Assembly (NCBI GenBank): GCA_020050775.1
Contig: JAGVKC010000079.1
Coordinates: 1-24,332 of the forward strand
Reading direction: 5' to 3'
DNA length: 24,332 nt
Origin: Minisyncoccota bacterium
GTDB taxonomy: Bacteria; Patescibacteriota; Minisyncoccia; Phycocordibacterales; SBAW01
Of the stretch, positions 17,694-19,079 are shown piece by piece. The notes under the pieces were generated by a model. It ran no database searches. It was not told the origin of the DNA and saw only the letters and a list, made by a program, of their open reading frames with translations. The first letter of the stretch is position 1. The number at the start of each line of letters is the position of its first letter. The position numbers were made by a program, and so were the translations under genes.

Positions 17694-19079
<1,386 letters not shown>

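Follow-up and report, generated by a model that had tools for sequence, protein, structure and literature searches.

An in-frame TGA at an invariant glycine of atpD in a Minisyncoccia-type genome is most likely an ordinary one-base lesion under the standard genetic code

The gene for the F1 beta subunit (atpD) of the genome studied here is interrupted at codon 90 by an in-frame TGA, which stands at the position of an invariant glycine. The recoding reading, in which this TGA would be decoded as Gly according to translation table 25, is refuted, and the genome is on the standard code. What is left is an ordinary lesion of one base, most likely an error at the level of the assembly. Table 25 is thus not to be inferred from a solitary TGA at a conserved Gly whose window happens to contain no TGA stops. 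By the window we mean the whole stretch of DNA that was analysed, 24,332 nt long, which is contig C60 of the assembly. The genome comprises 553,959 bp in 84 contigs, the largest of 24 kb, with an estimated completeness of 90% and 49% G+C. Its nearest records bear the names Candidatus Paceibacterota, Adlerbacteria or Kaiserbacteria and its tree label is Minisyncoccota; the organism is an ultra-small, groundwater-type CPR bacterium of the Paceibacteria/Minisyncoccia type, and not a member of Gracilibacteria or Absconditabacteria.

The atpD site and its conservation

The features of the atp region, all on the minus strand, are listed below.

17452..23551, minus strand: atp operon in the order a-c-b-(short delta)-alpha-gamma-beta-epsilon, assigned by Pfam; every gene but beta is intact
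17694..19079, minus strand: atpD (F1 beta), full frame of 461 codons, intact apart from codon 90 by comparison with Pfam, PDB and the protein P0003
18810..18812, minus strand: in-frame TGA, codon 90 of atpD (TCA on the plus strand)
18810..19079, minus strand: upstream open reading frame of 89 aa as called with table 11, the beta-barrel crown domain only
17694..18797, minus strand: downstream open reading frame of 367 aa, nucleotide-binding and C-terminal domains, with a GTG start four codons past the TGA

The full frame has the beta-barrel, P-loop nucleotide-binding and C-terminal domains of an F1 beta subunit and is located within an atp operon. Pfam placed ATP-synt_ab_N at residues 10-77 and ATP-synt_ab at residues 134-347, followed by the C-terminal domain, and F1 beta chains of the PDB matched the protein with E about 1e-200. 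The TGA of codon 90 is located between the beta-barrel and the nucleotide-binding domain, and the two pieces that result, of 89 and 367 aa, are recorded separately as proteins in NCBI and JGI/IMG. Among the 43 Gly positions of this AtpD, one is TGA. With respect to the GGN codons of the relatives, the change on the plus strand is C>A at 18812, in a CCG>CAG context (18811-18813). The order and gene lengths of the operon match those of four relatives, and the statement of the sequence-only reading (the earlier interpretation, made from the letters of the window) that the other atp genes are intact holds for a, c, b, the short delta-like gene, alpha, gamma and epsilon.

Some minor traits of the operon were also seen. 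The gene at the delta position (21579-21884) belongs to a type of only about 85-101 aa without a Pfam match, and epsilon (17452-17685) is 77 aa long and formed by the beta-sandwich only; both traits are found likewise in four relatives. In the relative G018 the separate delta frame is absent and the b subunit has 186 aa.

The column of codon 90 was Gly in all of the 27 relatives compared, encoded by GGA, GGC, GGG or GGT and by GGA in the closest one, and Gly likewise occupied it in all 80 beta subunits taken from diverse bacteria. The protein P0003 (451 aa, from a Logan contig of 7,704 nt) matches AtpD at 447 of 451 residues (99% identity), with Gly at position 90. The earlier claim of a TGA lying in frame at a conserved Gly of atpD is therefore borne out by the relatives, by P0003 and by the wider bacterial set. 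A groundwater contig of run X2, taken as that of P0003 on account of its equal length of 7,704 nt, differs in 166 of 1,601 bases (about 10%), and all its listed differences from atpD (17694-19079) are in third codon positions. Judged from these comparisons, the rest of atpD has been under very strong purifying selection up to the present. The terminal protein branch of AtpD has a normal length (0.22; median 0.23). The dN/dS of atpD with respect to members of the genus was 0.04-0.08, with a dS that is saturated (about 1.5-3) and uninformative for recent events.

Considering that P0003 differs in only 4 of 451 residues despite the difference of about 10% in DNA, the TGA is either younger than about 1% of that divergence or not real. 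At columns that are otherwise invariant, a single residue was unique to AtpD and it was common to P0003, a count that has no power to reveal extra errors. P0127, an additional member of the same cluster, was discarded as a different and partial relative.

The search for independent copies of the site covered public reads, contigs and proteins. Among the sequencing runs listed by the search, none contained the stretch (best share of words 0.13), and no RNA run containing it was listed. The sole near-identical public contig, of 163 nt with depth 2 from run X1, spans 18797-18959 and has one differing letter somewhere within it. An exact-pattern scan around the codon-90 site found no match in the JGI metagenome contigs. 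Exact look-ups were also made for the partial protein expected from the X1 contig, in a Gly version and a TGA-ended version, and neither was in the collection.

Other one-base lesions in the assembly

Open reading frames from 528 kb of the congener G020 and 259 kb of the congener G004 were compared by tblastn with the genome, and antisense frames and gene junctions were removed. This screen was used in place of a codon-score screen for split frames, which was too strict and missed the glycosyltransferase case given below. Four in-frame stops in true coding frames were obtained by tblastn: the TGA of atpD, a TGA in a GT4 glycosyltransferase, a TAG in a regulator and a TAG on contig C28. The lesion of the GT4 gene was exposed by reading TGA through across the genome together with a Pfam scan. 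With the frameshifts, there are at least six private one-base lesions (2 TGA, 2 TAG and 2 homopolymer frameshifts), of which those outside atpD are the following.

5149..5151, minus strand: TAG in place of an invariant Trp (TGG in six of six relatives) in a sigma-r4/HTH regulator (4957-6024)
C3:4127-4129: TGA at codon 172 of a GT4 glycosyltransferase (C3:3614-4750), inside the N-terminal Glyco_transf_4 domain; the relatives have Cys (TGC) or Val
C28:215-217: TAG in a conserved gene of no known identity, found in the tblastn screen
C31, about 1795: one-base frameshift in an A5 run of typA/bipA, found in the tblastn screen
C7, about 670: one-base frameshift in a T6 run of a conserved membrane protein, found in the tblastn screen

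The TAG of the regulator removes the last 63 residues of a protein that is 81-87% identical to its orthologues. In the reciprocal screen, which covered 787 kb of two congeners (5 and 7 contigs), there was no such stop or frameshift. The TGA of atpD thus belongs to a set of at least six private one-base lesions, not all of the same kind, in an assembly that is fragmented.

Several candidates did not survive inspection. C55:592 and C21:8049 were rejected as lesions, being in antisense frames, and most of the tblastn matches with multiple stops, as well as most of the apparent frameshifts, were antisense frames or gene junctions. The two in-frame TGAs, those of atpD and GT4, have the TGA-CGC context in common. 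A role of the hexamer TGACGC as a motif of methylation or of error was contemplated but given up, since there are only two cases and the ancestral codon of GT4 is uncertain.

Consensus error and young null allele

Three readings had been offered from the sequence alone; a sequencing error and a real nonsense allele remain, and an incipient decoding of UGA as Gly falls. We favour an error of the consensus, made in sequencing or assembly, in a low-coverage and fragmented MAG, and we hold this reading of codon 90 with about as much confidence as doubt. The actual codon would then be GGA (Gly), a normal F1 beta would be encoded, and the single G-to-T difference would be private to the assembly. 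That the lesions arose in the data, rather than in the cells, is our inference.

Several observations are consistent with an error of the consensus. The TGA is a singleton against all the relatives, and the excess of lesions tracks the fragmentation of the assembly, the well-assembled congeners showing none. Signs of low coverage are given by the 84 contigs and by the depth of 2 of the only near-identical public contig. In a gut contig unrelated to this genome, with a stated coverage of 0.74, a lone TGA was found at the same Gly. The implied ratio of substitutions to indels also appears to be roughly like that of short-read errors, and selection as efficient as that seen in atpD would hardly be expected to leave six null lesions in conserved genes. 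As for the kind of change, C>A in a CCG>CAG context is the signature of the 8-oxoG artefacts described in sequencing libraries, where C>A / G>T changes with CCG>CAG were present at low allele fraction in deep human data (Costello et al. 2013, PMC3616734). Both the substitution class and the trinucleotide context are the same here; whether such an artefact reaches the consensus depends on coverage, and the same chemistry makes real mutations.

On the other side, short-read assemblers usually want at least 2 reads per k-mer, and several independent errors are unlikely unless the coverage was very low or the DNA damaged. In addition, all six lesions are in possibly dispensable genes and none in those for ribosomal proteins, aminoacyl-tRNA synthetases or polymerases; this sparing of essential genes is expected if selection acts on real mutations. 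The ATP synthase is demonstrably dispensable in the clade, and both homopolymer indels and G>T are natural mutation classes too.

The rival reading is a real and very young loss-of-function allele in which GGA>TGA inactivates F1 beta as the first step of the loss of the ATP synthase. We judge it a serious possibility, though one that we believe in less than we doubt. The only efficient product would be the 89-aa crown domain. It is a close rival because the ATP synthase is missing in a congener and in many sister families. The ATP-synt_ab catalytic subunits were not found in the congener G017, which is 95% complete in 10 contigs, and G017, G027, G034 and G040 all gave no ATP-synt_ab domain over the cut-off. 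Of the 16 other families of the order that were sampled, 10 had no match to either beta or alpha, and most of these are 97-100% complete. Such absences point to repeated loss of the ATP synthase within this order of Paceibacteria and, with it, to a complex that is dispensable. The genes hit by the other lesions are plausibly non-essential too, bacterial genomes normally contain a few pseudogenes, and G>T is also a class of 8-oxoG mutation in vivo.

Against a null allele it has to be said that no decay is seen anywhere in the operon or in the remaining part of atpD. With 4 of 451 residues differing from P0003, the inactivation must fall in the last 1% or so of the branch. Moreover, the six null lesions in conserved genes are a poor match for a selection as efficient as this, and the well-assembled congeners have none. 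If the TGA were real, the first step of the loss of an ATP synthase would have been caught, which would be modestly interesting with regard to energy metabolism in CPR bacteria.

By comparison with the ordinary nonsense lesions of MAGs, the case is alike in being one step from GGA, private, and placed in a gene that is otherwise intact and conserved, next to other private stops and homopolymer frameshifts. Nothing in it is distinctive; the target is notable as a core gene, though a dispensable one in this clade.

Genetic code in use and the remaining readings

The use of stop codons was tallied in a greedy set of non-overlapping open reading frames of at least 150 aa. The 416 frames ended in TAA (243), TAG (105) or TGA (68, that is, 16%), and the TGA ends were distributed on many contigs. 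Past the TGA ends a further in-frame stop follows after a median of 20.5 codons, a distance not greater than past TAA or TAG. In all three genomes of the genus that were examined, TGA closes the fewest long frames (9-22%), despite their 49-58% G+C and independently of the type of tRNA-Trp stem; its share was 17-22% in G020 and 9-12% in G004 (55-58% G+C). The suggestion that the lineage had largely abandoned UGA as a stop is thus right as to rarity, which extends across the genus, and wrong as to use, since the codon clearly still serves. The window itself has gene ends of TAA and TAG only, in rough agreement with the earlier count of 19 TAA, 5 TAG and 0 TGA. With a share of 16%, the probability of zero TGA is about 0.014 for 24 gene ends and about 0.05 for 17 long genes; this absence is a weak anomaly, a mild fluctuation.

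In open reading frames of at least 200 aa, which add up to 112,285 codons with 8,407 Gly codons, there was no internal TGA. Across the true coding frames of the whole genome there are two, the one at Gly in atpD and the one at Cys/Val in GT4. The TGA of atpD had been described as the only internal one, and this is correct within the window and not across the genome, where contig C3 has the second.

The release factors point the same way. The prfB gene (RF2) was found at C25:3786-4664, minus strand, as a single frame of 292 aa with the SPF and GGQ motifs, and it scored 313 bits with TIGR00020 against 200 with TIGR00019. RF1 has PAT and GGQ, and the prfA gene itself ends in TGA. As to the gene structure of prfB, the usual programmed +1 frameshift site is absent and the RF2 model aligned only partly in the N-terminal region (15-60, 116-352).

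ARAGORN detected 36 tRNAs, none with a UCA anticodon, in a set that is incomplete, with about 10 expected tRNAs missing, including Gly(UCC) and Met. In 787 kb of two congeners there was no tRNA with a UCA anticodon either. In this organism UGA serves as a stop in the ordinary way. The criteria applied here, a UGA-decoding tRNA and RF2, are those by which a Codetta screen concluded, for two genomes annotated as Gracilibacteria, that UGA is a stop (PMC8629427).

We also considered the possibility that the TGA is real and buffered by leaky decoding of UGA, in which near-cognate readthrough would yield a certain amount of full-length beta, in which residue 90 would probably be Trp. This seems to us improbable. 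The idea arises from the sole tRNA-Trp(CCA) found (C50:3560-3631, minus strand), in which U27 and U43 are unpaired, so that the anticodon stem is unpinned and has 4 bp, and position 24 is A. In addition, UGA is the least used stop, and C is the next base after each of the two in-frame TGAs; UGA-C is the weakest termination context of E. coli. It has been described that unpinning of the A27 type increases the readthrough of UGA about 2.5-fold in E. coli, and that stems of 4 bp go with a lower usage of UGA (PMC13092985).

The remaining evidence on leaky decoding is mostly adverse. RF2 is intact. The U27-U43 state is common to G019, G020 and G040, most relatives having a 5-bp stem, yet in G019 and G020, which share the tRNA-Trp, atpD is intact with GGN. 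The TGA share of G020 (17-22%) exceeds that of G004, which has the 5-bp stem. About 6.5% of the bacteria with the standard code likewise carry only a 4-bp tRNA-Trp (PMC13092985). Two of the four nonsense lesions are TAG, beyond the rescue of such readthrough, and harm is likely to come from a Trp in place of a Gly that does not vary among more than 100 sequences. Downstream of the codon-90 TGA, neither an RNA structure nor a motif was found (Rfam; fold z-score 0.41).

The tRNA was compared with the systems of 4-bp-stem tRNA-Trp, such as that of Zinderia (PMC13092985). It has their unpaired pair at the top of the anticodon stem (U27-U43), and UGA is the rarest stop here as well. Considering the Blastocrithidia-like class, which is defined by the lack of the A9C and G24A states (PMC13092985), the unpaired 27:43 position, the 7-nt loop and the CCA anticodon are all present. 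Position 24, however, is A (paired with U11) here and in all the relatives read, which puts this tRNA outside the class. Other differences are that RF2 is present, that there is no in-frame UGA at Trp columns and that atpD is intact in the congeners with the same tRNA. If leaky decoding were true, the gene would represent a natural intermediate toward the reassignment of UGA, a path completed by a family of the same class and by Gracilibacteria/Absconditabacteria.

The family in question, JAKLIH01, belongs to Minisyncoccia and has reassigned UGA to Trp (PMC13092985). A full UGA=Trp code (code 4) of that kind was rejected for the present genome: no tRNA-Trp(UCA) is among the 36 tRNAs detected, RF2 is kept, UGA stops are used, and the in-frame TGAs are at Gly and Cys/Val.

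A functional split of beta is very unlikely. The crown domain (residues 1-89) and the remainder, made from the downstream GTG by termination-reinitiation, would have to assemble into F1. The location of the TGA between the beta-barrel and the nucleotide-binding domain, with the GTG 12 nt downstream, would be suitable for it. The split is nevertheless a singleton, with no relative divided at codon 90; four conserved residues (RLFN) would be lost together with the invariant Gly, and there is no outstanding Shine-Dalgarno sequence or structure.

Decoding of UGA as Gly, either full or incipient, has next to no probability left. It was suggested by a TGA placed exactly on an invariant Gly and by a window without TGA gene ends, and tRNA-Gly(UCC) is absent from the 36 recovered tRNAs, so that the tRNA set is incomplete. 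The facts named beforehand as fatal to it are nonetheless the ones found, namely, that RF2 is retained, that about 16% of the stops are TGA and that there is no other TGA at a conserved Gly. Only one in-frame TGA at a conserved Gly stands against 8,407 Gly codons in long frames, the second in-frame TGA of the genome aligns to Cys/Val, the tRNA-Gly with a UCA anticodon that had been proposed as a search target is not among the 36 tRNAs, and the phylogenetic placement is wrong.

A positive control gives an idea of what such a code looks like in this protein. JGI metagenome contigs were scanned with the degenerate pattern P-V-G-x3-L-TGA-R-..., and seven contigs were obtained. In six of them (L214-L218 and L220; 34-44% G+C) atpD had 1-7 TGAs, or 2-7 where most of the gene was present, and 18 of the 19 TGAs were at Gly columns of this protein (G24, G90, G147, G154, G157, G177, G183 and G191). 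Judging by this pattern, the six are probably from code-25 organisms. The seventh, L219 (1174-1176), is the gut metagenome contig of coverage 0.74 mentioned above; it has a Firmicutes-like atpD with a lone TGA at the same Gly and is another singleton from very thin data. With the code 25 of Gracilibacteria/Absconditabacteria our genome shares a TGA at a conserved Gly, a position within the Patescibacteria radiation and a low usage of TGA stops. It differs in that RF2 is kept, TGA stops are used, no tRNA-Gly(UCA) was found, atpD has one TGA instead of 2-7, and the class is another.

Insertion of selenocysteine, which has nothing in its favour beyond the codon itself, is the least probable of all, practically negligible, with no SelB match over the cut-off (the GTPase domains that matched belong to other factors), no tRNA-Sec, no SECIS or other Rfam match, the fold z-score of 0.41 already given, and a site that is Gly and not Cys.

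As for lone TGAs at conserved Gly codons, GGA is in this genome the commonest codon one step away from TGA, with 15.6 per 1000 codons against 2.7-10.3 for the other seven neighbours, and G>T is a common class of both damage and mutation.
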